NCBI GenBank assembly: GCA_019058015.1
Contig: JAHLWH010000107.1
Span: 1 to 36,841, forward strand
DNA: 36,841 bases
Reading direction: 5' to 3'
Origin: Promethearchaeota archaeon
GTDB lineage: Archaea; Asgardarchaeota; Lokiarchaeia; Sigyniarchaeales; SOKP01
Shown: piece by piece, positions 3,507-29,386 of the stretch
How positions within the stretch are numbered: the first letter of the stretch is position 1
How the letters are laid out: each line of letters starts with the position of its first letter
Notes under the pieces: generated by a model
Database searches by the model: none
Seen by the model: only the letters and a program-made list of their open reading frames with translations
What the model was told of the DNA's origin: nothing
Program-made: the position numbers and the translations under genes

Positions 3507-4532
3507 TTGGTGTATTTTATGAGCAAATCTAAAAAAGAATATTATGTTCGGGATTTAATTATCGATGATGAATATGGTATAATTGATTCTAATGTTTCAA
3601 TTCAAGATGCTGCGAAAAAAATGAAGGAGCTAGGAGTGCCGGATTTAGTGGTAGTTGAAAAGGAGTCAAACAAGGTCCTTGGGGTTGTAGCTGATTTTGA
3701 TATTGTTCAGAATGTAGTTGCAGAAGGTATTGATCCAAAATCTGCAAAGGTTATTTCAGCAATGTATACAATTACTTCTGTATCTTTAGGCACTCCGGTT
3801 TCCGAAGCATTTACAAGGATGCGTGATTTACAAGTTAATGTGGTTCCCGTGGTTGAAAAAGAAAAACTTATTGGAGTATGTACAATTCAAGACTGTTGGG
3901 ATTACCTTCCAGATGTAAGTGAAGATGAAATAGGTCTTATTCCAGTTGCCGATCCAAAAAACGCAGAATTCTGGTTTACAAGTGTATGTTCAATTTTAGC
4001 GTTTGTTTTGGGTATACTTTTACCTCTTGTTGGAGTTTTTGGATACTTTTCTGCAAATCAAACAGATCTCATGAATTTTTTTGGTATGGCTGAAATTAGA
4101 GGAGGAGAAATTACTTTTTATTTATTTGAAGCGCGTGGTACGGATTTCTTTGTTCCTTTAAGTAATTTAATAGCTAGAAATGGTGCTTTATGGGCAATAT
4201 TAATAATTTGTAGTTTCTCAATACTAATTATTGGTATTATCGGCTTATTCTCTTTAATTTATACAAGTTTTTCTGATGCTAGGAATATTAAAACGGGGCG
4301 AATTGTGCGAACAGTGATTCCATGGTTAATTATTGTTATTATGATTCTTGAATGGGTATTTTTCATTGTTGGATTTATGACTGCAGCACCTCCTGTTAAT
4401 GTATTGGTTGATGGTATAGGATTATTTATGTCAATTATTTCTATGATACTATTTCTTCTGGCTATCAATCGTGACTATTTGTTCCGTCAAAAAGGAACAT
4501 CGAAGTCCATTACAGATGAGGTGTCGGTGTAA
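3507..4532 (+). CDS. CBS-pair (Bateman) domain protein fused to a 4-TM membrane domain
   Basis: SIQDAAKKMKELGVPDLVVVE...LGVVADFDI and VSEAFTRMRDLQVNVVPVVEKEKLIGVCTIQD are two CBS repeats, followed by four hydrophobic helices. Likely start is ATG 3519. Confidence 0.85.
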   Translation: MVYFMSKSKKEYYVRDLIIDDEYGIIDSNVSIQDAAKKMKELGVPDLVVVEKESNKVLGVVADFDIVQNVVAEGIDPKSAKVISAMYTITSVSLGTPVSEAFTRMRDLQVNVVPVVEKEKLIGVCTIQDCWDYLPDVSEDEIGLIPVADPKNAEFWFTSVCSILAFVLGILLPLVGVFGYFSANQTDLMNFFGMAEIRGGEITFYLFEARGTDFFVPLSNLIARNGALWAILIICSFSILIIGIIGLFSLIYTSFSDARNIKTGRIVRTVIPWLIIVIMILEWVFFIVGFMTAAPPVNVLVDGIGLFMSIISMILFLLAINRDYLFRQKGTSKSITDEVSV

Positions 4533-4533
4533 A

Positions 4534-6000
4534 ATGCCTCGTGGTGGCGGTGGTCGAGGTGGTGGTGGCAGCCGAGGCGGAGGTGGTTTTAGAGGTGGCG
4601 GATTTCGTGGAGGTGGTGCCAGTTTTCGAAGTAGTCGTGGACGTACGAGTGGAAGACCTTTTGGTCGAACCGGTGCTAGACGAACAGTAACTAGAAGCAC
4701 ACGAGGACCTTATAGACATAGACCTTATAGACGTTATGGTAGATATTACAGACGTTGGTATTACCCTTATTATCGACCTTGGTACCGAAGATGGTGGTAT
4801 CATCCCTGGTGGTCAGGGTATTATTATCGCCCTTGGTATTATTCTCCTGTATATGTTGGTGGAGGTATAATTTTTATTATTATATTTGCATTAATGGCAC
4901 TTCCATTACTCGGTATCGCGATAGCATTTCCTTTTGGTAATGCAGATACATCTGGTGTTGTAAATTATAGCTCAACGGAGACATTATATTATAATGAATA
5001 TTGGTATGAATATGAAAATATTAATCAAGGAAATGAAATCACTTTTTCCGTCCAATCATCGCCTAGTTTAATCAGTTTTGCCATTTGGGATCAGCCATTT
5101 GAATCATTCCCTTTAACAACTAAGTATGGATTTTTTAGTGATCAATTCACTGTTCAATCTGATAACTATGAGTACTATTCACTATATTTAAAACCTGGAT
5201 CGACAATTGATTATGATTTTAATGCGAGTAATCCTATAGATTTCTTCATTGCTGATGGATATAATTTAAATGAATGGAACTCGTATAAGAGTTATTCATT
5301 CGAATTAGAAATAAATAGTACAATGGCAGATAGTGGATCGTTACCAATTACTGCATCTATGGGATCTAAGGATTATTATCTCGTGTGGTATAATGAAGAA
5401 ATTACTGCTGTTAATGTTGAATTTATTGTTAATTATACTGCTACTGACGTGATAGACCTAACAGAGGCTGAATATTATGTGGAAGCAGTCGATATGATTT
5501 CTGAAACCTCAATTACTGCTCCTAATGATGGTAATTGGTACTTTTTCGTTTATTTCGACCCAATGAATTCACCAGAAGAATCTACATCAGTTACTTTTGA
5601 TGTGAGTTACGATACAGGGGTTAATTCTATTGATAGATGGATTGACTTTCGACCAATATTGATAATAATCGGAATAATCGTCTGTATAGTCATTATTGCA
5701 GCAGTATTAGCTAGAAGAAGCCAAAAGAAATTGAAAGCTAAAGCACCTTCTAAACCATCAGCTAAATCACCATATGTAAAGGGAAAACCTACAGCATCAG
5801 TTACTTGTGTTCGTTGTGGTTCAGAACTTCAACCGAATGACCAATTTTGTCGGAATTGTGGAGGTAAAAGAGAAGGAAGAGCAATCGGTGGTACTTCAAA
5901 AACTACACCAGCAAAATCCAAGATTTGTGCTTATTGTGGTAGTAAAATTCCAACAAAAGCCAAATTTTGTGGAGTTTGTGGCACTAAAATAGGAGAATAA
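4534..6000 (+). CDS. Two-pass membrane protein: RGG/Tyr-Arg-Trp-rich N-terminus, extracellular beta-rich domains, C-terminal double zinc ribbon
   Basis: ATG 4534 follows a GAGGTG SD motif, 1 nt after the CBS gene stop. Starts MPRGGGGRGGGGSRGG, has two TM segments and CxxC...CxxC pairs (CVRC/CRNC, CAYC/CGVC). Confidence 0.85.
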   Translation: MPRGGGGRGGGGSRGGGGFRGGGFRGGGASFRSSRGRTSGRPFGRTGARRTVTRSTRGPYRHRPYRRYGRYYRRWYYPYYRPWYRRWWYHPWWSGYYYRPWYYSPVYVGGGIIFIIIFALMALPLLGIAIAFPFGNADTSGVVNYSSTETLYYNEYWYEYENINQGNEITFSVQSSPSLISFAIWDQPFESFPLTTKYGFFSDQFTVQSDNYEYYSLYLKPGSTIDYDFNASNPIDFFIADGYNLNEWNSYKSYSFELEINSTMADSGSLPITASMGSKDYYLVWYNEEITAVNVEFIVNYTATDVIDLTEAEYYVEAVDMISETSITAPNDGNWYFFVYFDPMNSPEESTSVTFDVSYDTGVNSIDRWIDFRPILIIIGIIVCIVIIAAVLARRSQKKLKAKAPSKPSAKSPYVKGKPTASVTCVRCGSELQPNDQFCRNCGGKREGRAIGGTSKTTPAKSKICAYCGSKIPTKAKFCGVCGTKIGE

Positions 6001-6173: not shown

Positions 6174-7097
6174 TTGATTAGGTCTGAAATTAAAGAAATG
6201 ATACAAGATTTAAAAAAAAATAATACTTCTGGTGCAAATGAACTAATAGATGATGCTTATGAAATAATAAAAAGACAATTGGAACTGATATCGGATCCAA
6301 ATAAAGATATTAAAGAACTTATAATTGAGCTTTCAAAAAAGATTATTGAATCTCGCCCTAGTATGGCGACACTTATCAATTTTATCGGGTACTTTATTCA
6401 CGATTTAGAAACCTTTACTAAAAAAGCTCTGTTCCAAAAACTAAATAATTATTTAAAAGAAAAAAATAAGAGAAAAAAAGCCCTTGAACAAGAATTCCTT
6501 ATTTTTCTAAAAAACTTTAATAAAAAAGATATGAAAATTATGTTGATTTCTTATAGTTCAACTATCACTAATCTTCTAATCAAACTAAAGGAGTATAATT
6601 TTGAACTTTTTATCTTAGAATCAAGACCACTTCTTGAGGGACATACCGTTGCTGAAGTTTTATCATCTCATTTCAAAACAAATCTCATAATCGACGCTGC
6701 CATGGGAAAATTCATTAATCAAATTAATTTAGTCTTAGTTGGTATTGATAGTATCTTAAAAAATGGGGCAATAATAAACAAGATAGGAACGTATCCTTTA
6801 GCAAATTTAGCTAAGGGAAAAGGTATTGATGTATATGCTGTTGGTGACTCGTTTAAATATAATCTTAGAAGTCATTATGGTGAAGAGATTCTCATAGAAA
6901 GAAAACCAACACAAGAGATTTATAATAAAACGATACAAAATAAATTGTTAGAAATTCAAAATTATTATTTTGATATTACTCCTTCAAAATACATTACAGG
7001 GATAATTTCCGATTTAGGAGTATTAGAAATTCAAGAATTTTTAAATATTATAAAAGTTAATCTACCAATTGATTGGTTTAAATCTTTTTATGAATGA
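6174..7097 (+). CDS. eIF-2B alpha/beta/delta family (IF-2B) protein
   Basis: SGANEL, RPSMA, SYSST, ESRPLLEG, VLVGIDSI..NG.IINKIGT, FDITP..YITGIISDLG. Confidence 0.92.
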   Translation: MIRSEIKEMIQDLKKNNTSGANELIDDAYEIIKRQLELISDPNKDIKELIIELSKKIIESRPSMATLINFIGYFIHDLETFTKKALFQKLNNYLKEKNKRKKALEQEFLIFLKNFNKKDMKIMLISYSSTITNLLIKLKEYNFELFILESRPLLEGHTVAEVLSSHFKTNLIIDAAMGKFINQINLVLVGIDSILKNGAIINKIGTYPLANLAKGKGIDVYAVGDSFKYNLRSHYGEEILIERKPTQEIYNKTIQNKLLEIQNYYFDITPSKYITGIISDLGVLEIQEFLNIIKVNLPIDWFKSFYE

Positions 7098-7155
7098 TAT
7101 TTTTTTAATATTCCTTTAAATAAATCGTAATTAATATTTATTAATTCTTAGAATT

Positions 7156-7167
7156 AAGCTTAAATAA
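7156..7167 (+). promoter_or_regulatory. Putative TATA-box region (AAGCTTAAATAA) for the UGA-containing operon
   Basis: The same 12-mer recurs at 8049-8060 upstream of the 8109 gene. Matches the archaeal TTAAATA-type box. Confidence 0.4.
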
Positions 7168-7234
7168 TAACCATAATACTTTTTTAGGTGTAATAAAAAA
7201 TGAAATCAATAGAAATTTAAATTTTATAAAACAA

Positions 7235-7242
7235 AGGAGGTG
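7235..7242 (+). promoter_or_regulatory. Strong Shine-Dalgarno AGGAGGTG
   Basis: 4 nt upstream of ATG 7247. Confidence 0.75.
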
Positions 7243-7246
7243 TAAT

Positions 7247-7669
7247 ATGAGGCAAAGGGGTATTGTTGGTATTTTAGGTTCAGTTGTCGCAATAGTTATT
7301 ATTTTATCAGTTGTTGCTTTTATAATGTTTACTCCTTGAAACTGTGAAATTAATATAATAAGTCCTAGATATTCAGAAGTTTGGGATGAGTTAGGAGATT
7401 ATACAATAATATGGGAAGCATCTGATTCAATTGAAAATGTTAAGATCGAACTCTATAGAGGAAACGATTTTATATTAATAATTTCAAGTAAAACCATTAA
7501 TAATGGTCAATTAAATTTTACGATTAACGAAAGTAATGCGGAATTTCTTAGTGGTCTTAATTTTAGGGTAAAAATAGCCGATTTTAATAATGAAAATAAT
7601 TATGCATTTAGCGATTATTTTACGATTAACATCAAATCTGATAATGGCAATGGTGGTGGATGAGGTTAA
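7247..7669 (+). CDS. Candidate selenoprotein (140 aa, Sec31 and Sec139): N-terminal TM anchor, U-x-C, Kre9/KNH-like Ig-fold domain, C-terminal GGGUG
   Basis: Manual translation: MRQRGIVGILGSVVAIVIILSVVAFIMFTP-U-NCEINIISPRYSEVWDELGDYTIIWEASDSIENVKIELYRGNDFILIISSKTINNGQLNFTINESNAEFLSGLNFRVKIADFNNENNYAFSDYFTINIKSDNGNGGG-U-G*. TGA at 7337-7339 and 7661-7663, TAA at 7667-7669. Strong SD upstream, SECIS-like hairpin downstream. Absent from the ORF track. Confidence 0.8.
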
Positions 7670-7671
7670 AC

Positions 7672-7803
7672 ATGACAAGAAAAAAAATAATTATTATAAG
7701 TTCTGTTATTACCGTCATAGTTTTAATCTATTTAATTCTTAGATTTACAATTTTTACTGAAGGCGGTTTAATTTGATGGTTTAGAGAAATATTCAATTTG
7801 TAA
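7672..7803 (+). CDS. Candidate 43-aa single-pass membrane selenopeptide (Sec35)
   Basis: MTRKKIIIISSVITVIVLIYLILRFTIFTEGGLI-U-WFREIFNL*. GAGGT SD at 7662-7666, ATG 2 nt after the previous stop, TGA at 7774-7776, TAA at 7801-7803. Confidence 0.6.
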
Positions 7804-7807
7804 AAAA

Positions 7808-7883
7808 AACCCAAGATTTAAATGATGAATATTCAAAAATTGTAGGAATATTCGGATCGGAGTGCAACTCCCTTCTCTTGGTT
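7808..7883 (+). ncRNA. Eukaryote-type SECIS element (cis-acting 3'UTR hairpin)
   Basis: Helix I CCAAGA(7811-16)/TCTTGG(7876-81). AUGA at 7822-25. Quartet UGAU/GGAU. Helix II GAATATTC(7827-34)/GAATATTC(7846-53). Apical loop AAAAATTGTAG. GA at 7855-56. Extra hairpin GGAGT-GCA-ACTCC (7859-71) in the internal loop. Confidence 0.8.
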
Positions 7884-8108
7884 ATTAAATTTTTTAAAAA
7901 AAAAGATTTCTTTCAAATAAGCAACACAAGTACAAAAATTAAGTAATATCATAATAGAAATATTTCATTTTTAGCTTTTTAATAATATTTAGATAAAATT
8001 TTATATCGTAAACTTTTATTCTATTTTAAAATCAGTGAAATTTGTAAAAAGCTTAAATAAATTATTAAAATTTATAATAATGGATAATTTTAAATAAGTG
8101 ATTTCCAA

Positions 8109-9125
8109 ATGGAAAATTCTAAAAATCAAGATAAGGATGACCCTGAAAAAATCTATTTTGAGGACATCGTTAATCTAAAGAAGAGTGGTGGGATAACGAT
8201 ACCTAAAAATATTCGAGATGAATTATTTCCTGAATCAATAGAGAATATTTTTTTCAAATTATATGTCCCTAAAGAAAAAGATAAAATAATTTTAGAAATT
8301 TTGCCTGAAGAAGAGGCCAAAAAGCTTTCTGAAGAATTAAAATTAAAGAAAAAAACTCAGCAAATACTAAAGCCGAAATCTAAAGAAGTTGGAGGACGGA
8401 AAAAAAAAGAAAAGGTTTTAGGCCCTCAACCTGACTTTGGTCGTTATTTCGTTTATAATTTTGAAGCTCAGCAAAAACTTAGACCAATATTAGAATCTGT
8501 ATTTTATAAATTTGCTGAGACTCCTATTAATTTTGATGATGCTATGGGACGAATTAAATATGGGTTGGTTTCTTATCTTGGTTCAAATAATATTGAAAAT
8601 GCAAGATTATATTTTTCGGTTATAAACTTCTTATGTGATGTGATTGAGAAATTCAACATACCGAATTTGATAGAGTGGATTAATGATAAGATTATTGATA
8701 ATATAAAAAGTAAATTTCTTTACGAACAATCGTTATTAAGTTTGATCTCAACGTCAAATAAAATGCAAAAATATGAGAAAAGCGAAATATTTGTGAATAA
8801 AATCTTAAATAATATTGACAGTTATTCAAAAAACGAGTTATATAATATTTTAAATTCATTTGAGAATTTAGTAAAAATAGTTTATAAAGATCGTTCCTAT
8901 CCACAAATATTTGAACTAATTAAAGAAAAGTTATTGATTTATCTAAAAGAAATTGAAGATGTTGATTATAAAATACAAATAATTGAGTTGTTAGAGAATC
9001 TTAAATTTATTGAAACTGCATATAATATTGCCAAGGAAATATCAATGAATTTACCTCCAGAGTCACATAGAGTAGAACTTCTGAGAGAAATTGTAAAAAG
9101 ATTACATAAAAAACCGATTGTTTAA
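8109..9125 (+). CDS. AbrB/MazE-like swapped-hairpin N-terminal domain fused to an alpha-helical (TPR-like) domain
   Basis: IVNLKKSGGITIPKNIRDEL...FFKLYV...KIILE, then a Lys-rich linker and a helical C-terminus. Confidence 0.6.
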   Translation: MENSKNQDKDDPEKIYFEDIVNLKKSGGITIPKNIRDELFPESIENIFFKLYVPKEKDKIILEILPEEEAKKLSEELKLKKKTQQILKPKSKEVGGRKKKEKVLGPQPDFGRYFVYNFEAQQKLRPILESVFYKFAETPINFDDAMGRIKYGLVSYLGSNNIENARLYFSVINFLCDVIEKFNIPNLIEWINDKIIDNIKSKFLYEQSLLSLISTSNKMQKYEKSEIFVNKILNNIDSYSKNELYNILNSFENLVKIVYKDRSYPQIFELIKEKLLIYLKEIEDVDYKIQIIELLENLKFIETAYNIAKEISMNLPPESHRVELLREIVKRLHKKPIV

Positions 9126-25363: not shown

Positions 25364-28300
25364 ATGGTAATACAAGTGAATATCAAAAAATCAAAATTGG
25401 AATGTATCTTTTTGGTCATAATTTTAACATTTTTAATTTTGAATTCTTTGATAATAACTCCTAACAATTTAACTTTTCAAAATAATGAGAATTCTCTTGA
25501 TTCTCCAATTAAATATAAAAAGGATAATCCGACAATGTCTCAAACCGATTTGGACAATCCAATTTATGGAGATGGATTAAATCAAACGGTAAGAGCATAT
25601 ATGAAAAATATCTCGACCTCAATAATGACTAATGGTTCTTTTAATATCACTGCACCTAATTTAAACTCGAAATTGACAGCTGGTGAATTTAATTTCACAT
25701 TTGATCGAAATTATAATACTACATATGAAATCGAAGATGATTCTGTATATGATTATCCAATTATTAAATTTCCGTTTGATAATGCAACAGAGAATTTAAT
25801 TAGTGGTAACAACATTTCGGGTGGGATAGCGGAGATTACAGATGATAATCCTTCATCATATTGGAAAATAAATTCTACATCTTCTCCTGGTGTTATTAAT
25901 TTTACAATTACTGCCAATTTTTCCAGTTCAAAAGATTTATTCTCTTTTAATTATTATAATATTAGTAGAATTGATGTAGATTTTACAATTAACTTAACAA
26001 AAGATGTTTATCTAACTGTTAAAATTTGGGATAGACTTGAGGATATATGGAATAATATCTCGTCAGATATCTTTATAAATAGTTCAGATTTAAATGAAAA
26101 GACAATAAATCTGGACATAATTAATAAAAATTTGAGATATATAAACTCTACAGGATATAGTATTTTTCAATTTTACTTTAGAAATACTATGGATAGTTTC
26201 AATTTGAGTTTTTATGAATTCGACGCTTTTGCTTCTTCAGTTTATGAATTACCAATCACCAACATGACTTATGTTGCATTAGAATTTGATTTAAGAGGAA
26301 ATGCAACCATAAATGGTTTTCAAACATGGATAAGATCTTTAAATTTATCAGCAGCCAATAATTCAAAATTAGTTATTTCACTTTATCGAGCAAATGCTAC
26401 AGTCCTAAGAAGCCAAATAAACGATGATTCTTCCCCAGCGGAAAATATTTTAATTAAACCAGAAATTTTTATTGATTCTATTGAAATATTGAATTATACT
26501 AATGATTCAATAGTAAATTTTAGTTTTACTACACCGATAACAAATCTTAATGTAAGTAATTATTTTTTTGTAATAAAATCAAACATTAGCACGGACGCCT
26601 TTCATTTAATGATTTTACCACAGACGGCTCCACCACCTCAAGGTTTTGATCCTGATCAGAAAAATAATCATTTATTACTTAAAACCGAAACCGATGGCTC
26701 TTCTTGGGTAAAATGTCAAGAGTTAACTTATGGACAGTTTGATGCAAGTCCTTTTATTATTAATGTAACCCGTGGATGGATACCTAATGATATTTTAAAT
26801 ATAACTATAGAAAATAAAACATTATCAAACATGGAAATTAGCATCTATCCATATAATCAATCTTCAACATACATTTGGGGTTTAGGACAATGGATAGGAG
26901 AATTTGAAGAACCAATAAATACATCAAAAGGTGCAAAATTTGAAGTTGTTTTGAATTGGAATAAAAATATTACATCTCACCTATTTTTTAGTGTTTCGTA
27001 CTCTGTAACAGCTTATTCATTAGAAACTGCTACTGCACATTATAACTGCACGTATGACGATCTTCCAAAATGGGAGTTGAACTATACATTTAATAATGAA
27101 AGGAGCTATTTCATCACTAATTGGTCGTTTTTGGAATTTTGGTATATATATCCTTCATATTGGACACCATATGATTTAATCTGTGCAGATTATAAATCAA
27201 AATATGATGTAAATTCTTCAGGCACATTAATTGAAAATGGTTCCTTCGGTAAATATGTTGTTCAAAATAATACAATTATCAATACCACAAATCCAAATCA
27301 TAGTGGGAATTATTCTCTAAAATTAACCAGTTTTAATTGTATTTACAATATGACATCTTATTTAAATTTTAATGATTCATATTATTGGCCAACTAATGGT
27401 TTTATGTTGGGTGATAATGTCTCAATAAGTCTAAATGTTCAAGATCATGATGTGAAACCAGTTTCTGATGGAATTGCCAATGCAAGTTTATTTTTACCGA
27501 ATGGTACAAAATTAATTAATTGGAACCTTTCGGATTCTAAAGGAGTAATTGATAATACTTTTGATGTTACAACTTATAATTTCGATAATTCGAATATTTT
27601 TAATTCGACCTTTTCAAACAAAAAAGGTTCTTACACAATTGGTTTCTTTTGGGAAAATGGAACTGCAATAGGCTACAAGAAAAAAACTTTCTATTTATCA
27701 GATTATGACTTTAATATAATTGATTGCACATATGATAAAGAGGAAGGAGGAAATATTTTTGAGGGAAATCTAATTAGGGCTGACACTGACTTAACTAATT
27801 ACTCTCTATTAATTGCAACTGTTAATGAATCAAAGAACATTAATACATTTACAATTAATAATACAATCTCTGAACATTTTTCAAATGATGATAATTTGAT
27901 TGTAGAAATTACTAATTTCCTTCAAAATGAAACGATCATAAGCCCAGGTGAAGATATTTCTTTTAAGATTAATGTAAAAAATAAAGATTTATATTTTCCT
28001 TTTAATGTAAGATTGTCTATTCAATTAGTTTCACCCATTAATCTAAATTGGATTATGACTGAAGTAAATACTCCTAATCAATTATTAAATTTTACAGGAA
28101 CACCTAATGATTCATTTGAATTTAATTATAACATAACTTTTATTAATAAAAATCCAGATGGGACATGGTACGGAATAAATTCACCTATTAGACTTGGTGG
28201 TTGTCAAACAAAAGTTAAAGTATTTATTGAAAATGAATTTTGTGGTTCTTGGATAAATAATGATTATTCAATTATAATAAATGATAATGAAACTGTTTTT

Positions 28301-29386
28301 GAAGGGGAGATTCTTTCTTTTAAATACTTAGAAGATTTAACATCAAGAGGGTTAGCCCTCAATTTTAATAGAGATGAATTTAATATGCCAGGAATTACGT
28401 CTTTTTTCATGAATATAATAGATGAATACTACATGAGTACATTTAATCAAATTAATGAATCATTCTCGTTTAAACTTGATAGCAGTTTTAAAAACTTATC
28501 AGTTAATCCTAGTGAAATTACTTGGAGTAATAAATTTAATTTAACAGCATATTTACAAACGGAGAATGCACAACCTCTAGAGGATAAGGAAATTAACTAT
28601 TACTTCTTAAACTCTAACAATGAATGGCAAGAACTTTTAGGACCCGATGGAGATAATTATGATAGTACAGATATAAATGGAAGGACAATTGTTGAGGTAG
28701 ATTCAAATCAATTCTTGAAAAATTCATCTGGAAAAATTAAATTGAATTGGACAGGAAATCCATATATATTATCTTCTGAAATTAATTATTCTTTTAATTT
28801 TATTATTTTTTCAAACGAAATTGTTGTAGAATTTTCGACAAATAATACAATATTTTTGCGAAATAAAGAAAATCAGATAAATATTAAAATAAAAAATGTT
28901 GGTACGTCTATACTTACAGATATTAACATTACATTAATATCAAAATTTTCCTATTCAATATCCAAATACAATAATTATGAATTAAATTATCTCGAACCAC
29001 AAGAAACTACTGAAATATCCTATAAAATTTTTATTCCTAATATAGAAGATAATAATATTACTATTTTAAGCAATATTTCTTTTAATACTTTACAAACTAA
29101 TGAAAAAGATGAATTACAATTTTTTCTTACATATGATTTAGATAGTGAATCTCCCTTTACTCAGATTATACAATTATCAATATTATTTCTTTTTATTGGT
29201 ATTAGCTTGTTTTATGTATTAGCTCTCTTATATAGAATAAGAATAAACAAAAAGATAGAAGAAATTTTTGAAAAACCTCCTGAAAGAAAAAGGAAGGGTA
29301 AATATGTGAAAGTTTCTGAATTACGAGCAAAAGAAATAGAGAAAAAAGATTTAGATGAGCTTCTTAAAGAAGAAAAGATAAAATGA
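25364..29386 (+). CDS. Large secreted, membrane-anchored surface glycoprotein (1340 aa)
   Basis: N-terminal hydrophobic signal, dozens of N-x-S/T sequons, Ig/CARDB-like C-terminal segment (IKIKNVG...L.PQE), C-terminal TM and a charged tail. Confidence 0.85.
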   Translation: MVIQVNIKKSKLECIFLVIILTFLILNSLIITPNNLTFQNNENSLDSPIKYKKDNPTMSQTDLDNPIYGDGLNQTVRAYMKNISTSIMTNGSFNITAPNLNSKLTAGEFNFTFDRNYNTTYEIEDDSVYDYPIIKFPFDNATENLISGNNISGGIAEITDDNPSSYWKINSTSSPGVINFTITANFSSSKDLFSFNYYNISRIDVDFTINLTKDVYLTVKIWDRLEDIWNNISSDIFINSSDLNEKTINLDIINKNLRYINSTGYSIFQFYFRNTMDSFNLSFYEFDAFASSVYELPITNMTYVALEFDLRGNATINGFQTWIRSLNLSAANNSKLVISLYRANATVLRSQINDDSSPAENILIKPEIFIDSIEILNYTNDSIVNFSFTTPITNLNVSNYFFVIKSNISTDAFHLMILPQTAPPPQGFDPDQKNNHLLLKTETDGSSWVKCQELTYGQFDASPFIINVTRGWIPNDILNITIENKTLSNMEISIYPYNQSSTYIWGLGQWIGEFEEPINTSKGAKFEVVLNWNKNITSHLFFSVSYSVTAYSLETATAHYNCTYDDLPKWELNYTFNNERSYFITNWSFLEFWYIYPSYWTPYDLICADYKSKYDVNSSGTLIENGSFGKYVVQNNTIINTTNPNHSGNYSLKLTSFNCIYNMTSYLNFNDSYYWPTNGFMLGDNVSISLNVQDHDVKPVSDGIANASLFLPNGTKLINWNLSDSKGVIDNTFDVTTYNFDNSNIFNSTFSNKKGSYTIGFFWENGTAIGYKKKTFYLSDYDFNIIDCTYDKEEGGNIFEGNLIRADTDLTNYSLLIATVNESKNINTFTINNTISEHFSNDDNLIVEITNFLQNETIISPGEDISFKINVKNKDLYFPFNVRLSIQLVSPINLNWIMTEVNTPNQLLNFTGTPNDSFEFNYNITFINKNPDGTWYGINSPIRLGGCQTKVKVFIENEFCGSWINNDYSIIINDNETVFEGEILSFKYLEDLTSRGLALNFNRDEFNMPGITSFFMNIIDEYYMSTFNQINESFSFKLDSSFKNLSVNPSEITWSNKFNLTAYLQTENAQPLEDKEINYYFLNSNNEWQELLGPDGDNYDSTDINGRTIVEVDSNQFLKNSSGKIKLNWTGNPYILSSEINYSFNFIIFSNEIVVEFSTNNTIFLRNKENQINIKIKNVGTSILTDINITLISKFSYSISKYNNYELNYLEPQETTEISYKIFIPNIEDNNITILSNISFNTLQTNEKDELQFFLTYDLDSESPFTQIIQLSILFLFIGISLFYVLALLYRIRINKKIEEIFEKPPERKRKGKYVKVSELRAKEIEKKDLDELLKEEKIK

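Follow-up and report, generated by a model that had tools for sequence, protein, structure and literature searches.

The stretch of DNA analysed here (the window) comprises 36,841 nucleotides of contig JAHLWH010000107.1 from a Promethearchaeota archaeon of the Lokiarchaeia (assembly GCA_019058015.1). Our subject within it is a pair of short adjacent genes, open reading frame 1 (ORF1) and ORF2, which contain three in-frame TGA codons and are followed by a selenocysteine insertion sequence (SECIS) of the lokiSECIS type. All features of this locus lie on the plus strand. ORF1 (7247-7669) starts with the ATG at 7247-7249, ends with the TAA at 7667-7669 and has 140 codons if both of its TGAs are selenocysteine (Sec, U). 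A Shine-Dalgarno-like GGAGGTG (7236-7242) is read from the sequence 4 nt 5' of this ATG; a motif like it precedes 1 of the 31 other long ORFs of the window, with longest-ORF starts assumed. The first TGA (7337-7339) is codon 31, the proposed Sec31, with the codon for Cys33 at 7343-7345. The second (7661-7663) is codon 139, followed by GGT TAA, and is a proposed penultimate Sec. ORF2, whose ATG at 7672 begins 5 bases beyond the end of ORF1, encodes a 43-codon single-pass membrane protein (7672-7803; TAA stop at 7801-7803), and the third TGA (7774-7776) is read as its codon 35. The lokiSECIS core follows at 7822-7856, within a full SECIS structure at 7811-7881. A run of six T (7890-7895) 3' of the SECIS marks a possible transcript end; oligo-T runs act as terminators in archaea. 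From these features of the sequence we conclude that the segment from about 7230 to 7895 is probably a two-gene selenoprotein operon in which one lokiSECIS has three UGAs read as Sec.

The ORF1 frame and its Ig-like domain

Past the first TGA, positions 7340-7660 hold 107 codons without an in-frame ATG, GTG, TTG or stop, as claimed in an earlier reading of this DNA made from the letters alone (the sequence-only reading). This frame is not significant by length alone, since 50 Markov-1 copies of the window yielded 48 stop-free frames of at least 107 codons, or about one per window. The domain that it encodes is real on the strength of a hidden Markov model (HMM) match rather than of frame length: Pfam family PF10342 (Kre9_KNH) aligns with the 107 codons over positions 1-94 of its 94-position model, scoring 29.6 bits (E 1.2e-6) where the gathering threshold is 24.6. 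The ORF1 domain was aligned with 28 domains from relatives (23-40% identity), and ORF1 retains every one of the 8 columns that are invariant or nearly so. AlphaFold2, run on the same alignment, returned an all-beta sandwich with a mean predicted local distance difference test (pLDDT) score of 85 (88-97 in blocks spanning residues 31-130), and the top Foldseek matches of this model in the PDB are fibronectin type III (FnIII) and immunoglobulin (Ig)-like modules. Pfam, AlphaFold2 and Foldseek thus concur on a Kre9_KNH-type Ig-like beta-sandwich at residues 39-127 (7361-7627), and the complete-looking sandwich of the sequence-only reading stands, as do its NFT and NES sequons, found at N90-F-T and N94-E-S. 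The name Kre9/KNH is only a Pfam domain label for ORF1; the role of fungal Kre9 in glucan synthesis has no link to the archaeal proteins.

The order of elements in ORF1 is a basic N-terminal stretch, a hydrophobic anchor, U31-N-C33, the Ig-like domain and a tail rich in Gly that closes with G-G-G-U-G. The hydrophobic stretch runs from I6 to F28 (helix 11-26 in the model), with U31-N32-C33 immediately after it, and U31, C33 and U139 are the only three chalcogen residues of the protein. Both proposed Sec residues lie outside the Ig-like domain, one in the juxtamembrane linker and one in the C-terminal tail. This placement is new relative to the sequence-only reading, as are the SECIS, the probable second Sec at 7661 and the second small gene with its third TGA. 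Among relatives of the genome, the Kre9_KNH-type domain is a common module of surface proteins. These share the domain with ORF1 and differ from it in having a signal peptide and a C-terminal anchor, often with several domains, and an in-frame TGA was found in none of them.

The SECIS element, Sec machinery and related Sec tails

The lokiSECIS core consists of AUGA (7822-7825), a 9-bp stem pairing 7826-7834 with 7846-7854, an 11-nt loop (7835-7845, AAAAAUUGUAG; five A first, AG last) and GA (7855-7856). It lies 21 nt 3' of the ORF2 stop and 485 nt downstream of the first TGA of ORF1, on the same strand. In the minimum free energy (MFE) fold, a lower stem pairs CCAAGA (7811-7816) with UCUUGG (7876-7881), and a small second hairpin, GGAGU-GCA-ACUCC (7859-7871), stands 3' of the GA; the MFE is -18.3 kcal/mol with a z score of -2.19. 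The same layout is seen in 5 other elements of the genome aligned with that of the window, the alignment being judged by eye. The lokiSECIS described in the accessible text of PMC4989117 has AUGA, a 9-bp stem, an 11-nt loop with five leading A and a final G mostly after A, and then GA; the window element carries every one of these published features.

Searches of the genome holding the window (G000; 3.84 Mb, 94% complete; one of the five genomes, G000-G004, of its genus) set this element apart from background. A descriptor derived only from three HdrA/VhuD/VhuU elements of this genome, with at least 8 of 9 pairs formed, found 6 sites in 3.84 Mb: the three training sites, the window element and two further elements, designated C213 and C134 after their contigs. 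No sites were found by this descriptor in the reversed genome or in 10 Markov genomes. A looser SECIS pattern, which gave 180 matches against 104 in the reversed genome, was too noisy and was dropped. Model R1, in whose building the window element was included, found 8 sites in the genome at 45-54 bits, with the next best at 27.6, and it matches all 22 genomes of the same family and only 2 of 14 in the order's other families. Model R3, independent of the window element, was built only on the core columns of 39 VhuD/VhuU-linked elements; in an exhaustive search of the window it scored the SECIS site at 31.4 bits (E 6.6e-5), with the next best at 18 bits. Genome-wide, with 150 of about 16,000 first-look candidates scored, the best non-training match among the matches listed reached 25.4 bits, below the score of the window element, which is itself absent from those matches. 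The stem covaries: across 70 distinct elements, 95.6% of SECIS stem cells are paired versus 51.4% after shuffling, a level that 0 of 500 shuffles attained, though it is a figure that is biased towards structure because the alignment was fitted to the model.

The genome also encodes Sec machinery. It contains a tRNA-Sec with anticodon TCA (60.1 bits, over cut-off), SelB/EFSec on the same contig (266.9 bits, over cut-off), SepSecS (388.5 bits, over cut-off) and a PSTK-like gene (152.9 bits, under its strict cut-off). In-frame TGAs are present in three HdrA-VhuD pairs and in VhuU, with one SECIS per pair, placed after the second gene; over 2 kb and a gene boundary separate the first hdrA UGA from the SECIS downstream of it. 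A single SECIS common to HdrA and VhuD is also described in the accessible text of PMC4989117 and PMC11227280. One SECIS for ORF1 and ORF2 therefore has direct precedent. Because a canonical lokiSECIS lies downstream and the Sec machinery is present, ORF1 and ORF2 are most likely selenoproteins and not broken genes.

The second TGA of ORF1 has a counterpart in the gene upstream of the C213 element. This gene, of 51 codons, lies ahead of its lokiSECIS; in its product a basic N-terminus and a single hydrophobic helix precede a linker rich in Pro and Gly and a G-G-G-U-G end. Of the last 22 nt of the C213 gene, 20 agree with the ORF1 tail (blastn on 1.1 kb, E 1e-4), and the two SECIS elements are identical at 48 of 62 nt, their stems differing by two compensatory pairs. 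In four of the five genus genomes (G000, G001, G002 and G004) the penultimate TGA of the C213-type gene is conserved, the product ending G-G-G-U-G or G-G-G-U-C. The sequence suggests that TGA 7661 is probably a second Sec codon and not an ordinary stop. Since its tail and SECIS match those of C213, ORF1 can be described as a C213-type design with an Ig-like domain between helix and Sec tail.

ORF2 falls into a wider set. The upstream regions of 128 further R1 matches in 22 related genomes were inspected; besides VhuD, VhuU and other candidates, small Sec-tail proteins, each with a basic stretch, a transmembrane helix, a Gly/Asn/Pro-rich linker of 10-14 residues and Sec, were found upstream of a lokiSECIS in G006, G011, G014, G015 (a fragment), G017, G018 and G022, so that the family spans no fewer than seven genera other than that of the window. 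The distance from UGA to lokiSECIS in this family is 40-75 nt. Beyond the Sec codon most members resemble one another in their hydrophobic residues, and U-x-C or C-x-x-U occurs in several. ORF2 shows the full architecture of the family, and the similarity across genera of the residues beyond the UGA argues that translation continues past it.

We infer that the locus would work as follows. One transcript would extend from before 7247 to the T-run at 7890, and EFSec bound at the SECIS in its 3' untranslated region (3'-UTR), together with Sec-tRNA(Sec), would decode UGA 31 and 139 of ORF1 and UGA 35 of ORF2. The 140-residue ORF1 product would have a short basic N-terminus inside the cell, a single membrane-spanning helix, Sec31-Asn-Cys33 at the outer membrane face, a glycosylatable Ig-like domain beyond it and a flexible Gly-rich tail ending Gly-Gly-Gly-Sec-Gly. 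The ORF2 product would be a 43-residue single-pass protein with its Sec in the outer tail. This topology, with N-termini inside and the Ig-like domain and Sec tails outside, is predicted by the positive-inside rule, and the two N-x-S/T sequons fit it. As to function, our guess, no less speculative than the surface redox or metal-binding site put forward in the sequence-only reading, is an extracytoplasmic selenol/thiol redox site or a chalcogen- or metal(loid)-handling site on a structural scaffold, in which, again as a guess, Sec31 and Cys33 might form a selenenylsulfide with the tail Sec as a mobile partner.

Distribution, variation and alternative explanations

Several observations weigh against the selenoprotein operon, and those on ORF1 come first. 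Of 61 genomes searched, two (G000 and G002) yielded the gene, and a metagenome scan added a single contig (L072), all copies showing at least 96% protein identity; near-identical contigs of four sequencing runs have it as well. None of the three TGAs is altered in G002, in L072, in X5, which carries the whole cassette, or in X7 and X8, which carry it partly, so TGA 7337 is not an assembly error. This conservation of the UGAs weighs little, because all copies are at least 96% identical. A cassette of about 1 kb holding ORF1, ORF2 and the SECIS (7057-8051, to which no strand applies) is an insertion/deletion polymorphism among close relatives: it is absent in X6 and X8 contigs, where 7056 is joined to 8052 with 12 other letters between, and G004 is without it at the same site, the flanking genes there being 30 nt apart. 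A Cys-containing orthologue of ORF1 was not found; the one product retrieved by the protein search was that of the window itself, from a gene call that translates TGA as Trp. By a hand count, Sec31 stands 2 residues past the helix, versus 10-14 in the Sec-tail family.

Variable sites were counted across G002, L072, X5, X7 and X8. ORF1 has 15, of which 13 are nonsynonymous and 2 synonymous, a ratio of 1.63 for which neutrality is not rejected (p 0.75), compared with ratios of nonsynonymous to synonymous polymorphism (pN/pS) of 0.30 and 0.21 in the flanking genes. In ORF2, 4 synonymous and 3 nonsynonymous sites were counted, fewer nonsynonymous ones than under neutrality (binomial p 0.037). The sequence-only reading had preferred recoding to decay, and had proposed comparing nonsynonymous and synonymous change (dN/dS) downstream of the TGA. 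Recoding is now better supported, by the downstream SECIS and the Sec machinery. In the comparison itself, where changes were too few for a decision, the 107 codons past the first TGA hold 9 nonsynonymous sites and 1 synonymous site among these close relatives, and neutrality is not rejected, with no frameshift or new stop in any copy of ORF1 seen. Neutral evolution of ORF1 is not affirmable either, because dN/dS is unreliable at about 1% synonymous divergence, high values being usual where divergence is very low. Between G000 and G002 the proportion of synonymous differences (pS) is 0.012 for ORF1, 0.15 for ORF2 and 0.145 for the neighbouring eIF-2B gene; the low value of ORF1 against the other two hints at a recent exchange of the ORF1 segment.

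These data could be explained if ORF1 were a young pseudogene or decaying gene, in which TGA31 is a nonsense mutation, TGA 7661 an ordinary stop and the Ig-like domain no longer made, the SECIS serving ORF2 alone. The neutral-like variation of ORF1 beside an ORF2 under purifying selection, the restriction to near-identical relatives, the indel polymorphism, the missing Cys homologue and the position of Sec31 all agree with this explanation. Nevertheless, we consider it unlikely. Where a SECIS follows on the same strand, a UGA would be read as Sec and would not amount to a null mutation, because SECIS elements in the 3'-UTR act in this way, as in the shared HdrA-VhuD SECIS (PMC4989117, accessible text). 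The ORF1 tail is homologous to the conserved Sec tail of the C213-type gene, the family-conserved domain residues are all intact, frameshifts and new stops are absent from all assemblies seen, and a strong ribosome-binding motif precedes the gene. The high dN/dS is of the kind usual at the very low divergence found here.

Other points against the operon concern the SECIS, the machinery and ORF2. No match to selD (TIGR00476) over cut-off was found in this 94%-complete genome. The loop of the SECIS in L072 starts with UUAAA and not AAAAA, and codon 3 of ORF2 is TGA in G002. Model R2, built from the same 39 elements as R3 with flanks included, scores the window element at only 18.5 bits, and the C213 and C134 elements are missing from its genome-wide matches; R2 was judged too gene-specific, and the model was therefore rebuilt on core columns as R3.

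A milder alternative is that UGA31 is decoded partly or only with selenium, so that a 30-residue membrane peptide would be the main product and the full-length protein a minor one, as in a selenium-sensing switch. Termination competes with Sec insertion in Sec decoding generally, UGA31 coincides with the end of a complete membrane helix, and three UGAs have to be passed with one SECIS. The sequence gives no sign of regulation, and HdrA of the same genome, with at least two UGAs far from its SECIS, must be made whole; we regard the switch as improbable. A further proposal concerns function and is compatible with Sec decoding: ORF1 could be a pilin-like subunit with a class III (type IV pilin-like) signal cleaved after Arg-Gly, an Ig-like head, and ends stapled by Sec/Cys. 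By eye, the M-R-Q-R-G start, the run of 23 hydrophobic residues behind it and a pilin-sized beta-sandwich suit such a protein, its Arg-Gly being presumably the class III cleavage motif. Against this, Pfam and NCBIfam, with E values up to 10 accepted, gave no pilin or archaellin N-terminal family, no pilus assembly genes lie within the window, and in relatives the related domains belong to ordinary surface proteins anchored at the C-terminus, which makes the pilin-like subunit very improbable. The idea that TGA is simply a sense codon (Trp or Gly) here, as in one public gene call (P0001) that reads both TGAs of ORF1 as Trp, has practically no chance of being correct and such an alternative code is refuted, given that under the standard code the window has 32 intact long ORFs, in which TGG occurs 119 times and of which 3 stop at TGA.

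Known selenoproteins and other SECIS-linked loci

The closest known systems to the proposed operon are the HdrA-VhuD, VhuU and PrxL genes of Lokiarchaeota (Mariotti et al., 2016, PMC4989117; Huang et al., 2024, PMC11227280). As far as the accessible text of these two papers goes, the likeness lies in the lokiSECIS dimensions, the position of the SECIS just past the coding region, the service of two adjacent genes and several UGAs by one element, and the Sec machinery. The ORF1 and ORF2 proteins differ from them in being membrane-anchored and probably extracytoplasmic, and in having their proposed Sec in linkers and tails, without a thioredoxin-like or metal-cluster fold. Within the C213-type and Sec-tail proteins, ORF1 is alike in its basic N-terminus, one helix, linker, Sec near the C-terminus and lokiSECIS; among the members seen, only ORF1 has an Ig-like domain of about 90 residues between helix and tail and a second Sec after the helix.

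Published lists, in their accessible text, hold seven Asgard and eleven archaeal selenoprotein families, and for none of the families listed there is a place in the membrane or at the surface described (PMC11227280; PMC13188914). The Asgard surveys, as that text presents them, were homology searches with known families. Proteins like ORF1 and ORF2 are not in the main-text lists of PMC11227280, PMC13188914, PMC11291895 or PMC4989117, though the supplementary tables of PMC11227280 and PMC4989117 may contain such loci. A literature search for Asgard transmembrane selenoproteins with a SECIS, or for Kre9 with selenocysteine, found nothing relevant, and as far as the searches go the small Sec-tail proteins are unpublished too. 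The mechanism, lokiSECIS-directed Sec insertion, is known; the ORF1 and ORF2 proteins are most likely new selenoproteins.

In design only, these proteins also resemble eukaryotic SelS and SelK, which are single-pass membrane proteins with Sec at or near the penultimate position of a Gly-rich disordered tail. SelK has its Sec near the end of a Gly-rich tail, and the tails of SelS and SelK face the cytosol, in contrast to the archaeal tails, which would point outward by the positive-inside rule. The penultimate Sec188 of SelS pairs with Cys174 (PMC3628699, accessible text). With E values up to 10 allowed, none of ORF1, ORF2 and the C213 protein matched Pfam SelK_SelG. Sec in a flexible Gly-rich tail is otherwise a feature of eukaryotic SelK, SelS and thioredoxin reductase. 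By analogy, ORF1, ORF2 and the C213-type proteins might form a lineage-wide Lokiarchaeia family of tail-Sec membrane proteins, an archaeal forerunner of the eukaryotic ones. We consider this highly doubtful; if it were true, part of the eukaryotic selenoproteome, besides the SECIS, would already have been present in the Asgard ancestor.

The locus points to membrane-anchored, probably extracytoplasmic selenoproteins and a wider Sec-tail set in the closest relatives of eukaryotes. If this is confirmed, the archaeal selenoproteome grows, selenocysteine is used outside the classical redox folds, and SECIS-first searches recover what homology searches miss. ORF1 in addition suggests how a gene may gain a domain and an extra Sec codon where the SECIS acts at a distance.

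Several other SECIS-linked loci were observed. Contig C134 of G000 (minus strand, about 8590-9070; SECIS at 8533-8579) encodes a protein of about 155 residues with two to three adjacent Sec codons. Proteins of this type carry Cys-Sec-Sec, Asp-Sec-Sec or Sec-Gly-Sec-Sec motifs, show good conservation beyond the Sec codons across several genera, and have a lokiSECIS 3' of the gene. They occur also at L045, L051, L054, L063, L079, L085, L090, L092 and L094, and further at L109, L115, L128, L133, L134, L137, L146, L148 and L153. In G000 the C134-type gene adjoins an ACR3-like transporter gene, and the type is absent from the published selenoprotein lists compared, in their accessible text. A second copy of the C134 SECIS (G000:C134:6013-6059, minus strand; R1 52 bits) is without a convincing upstream TGA-containing ORF and may be a duplication remnant; the same arrangement is present in G002 (L045). 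Small zinc-ribbon proteins with two Cys-x-x-Cys pairs and TGA as the last codon before the stop were seen at L087, L104, L108, L136 and L143, each with a lokiSECIS 30-40 nt later, and are candidate C-terminal-Sec proteins. L077 is an AhpD-like SECIS-linked candidate with Cys-x-x-Sec, and the SECIS-linked candidates L095, L141, L147, L149 and L150 have Ser-Sec followed by Cys a few residues on. At G000:C28:2483-2517 (minus strand), a VhuU-like gene ends on the UGA that forms part of the AUGA in the core of its own SECIS, an arrangement also found in G001, G002, G003 and G004.

The window as a whole is AT-rich, at about 23-38% G+C in 1-kb steps, and densely coding under the standard code. Rfam at gathering thresholds gave no match within it, and ARAGORN found no tRNA within it. 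Among the proteins it encodes are an Arf/Roc-type GTPase whose N-terminus is longin-like, a Roadblock/LC7 protein, an eIF-2B family protein and VWA/RING proteins. Taken with the lokiSECIS, this gene content suits an Asgard archaeon of the Lokiarchaeia type. A 1340-residue ORF at 25364-29386 is without a Pfam family above cut-off. The 509-residue protein encoded at 4471-6000 has an N-terminal region rich in Arg/Gly and in Tyr/Trp/Pro, has predicted membrane segments, and ends in two zinc ribbons, its only family-matching part.

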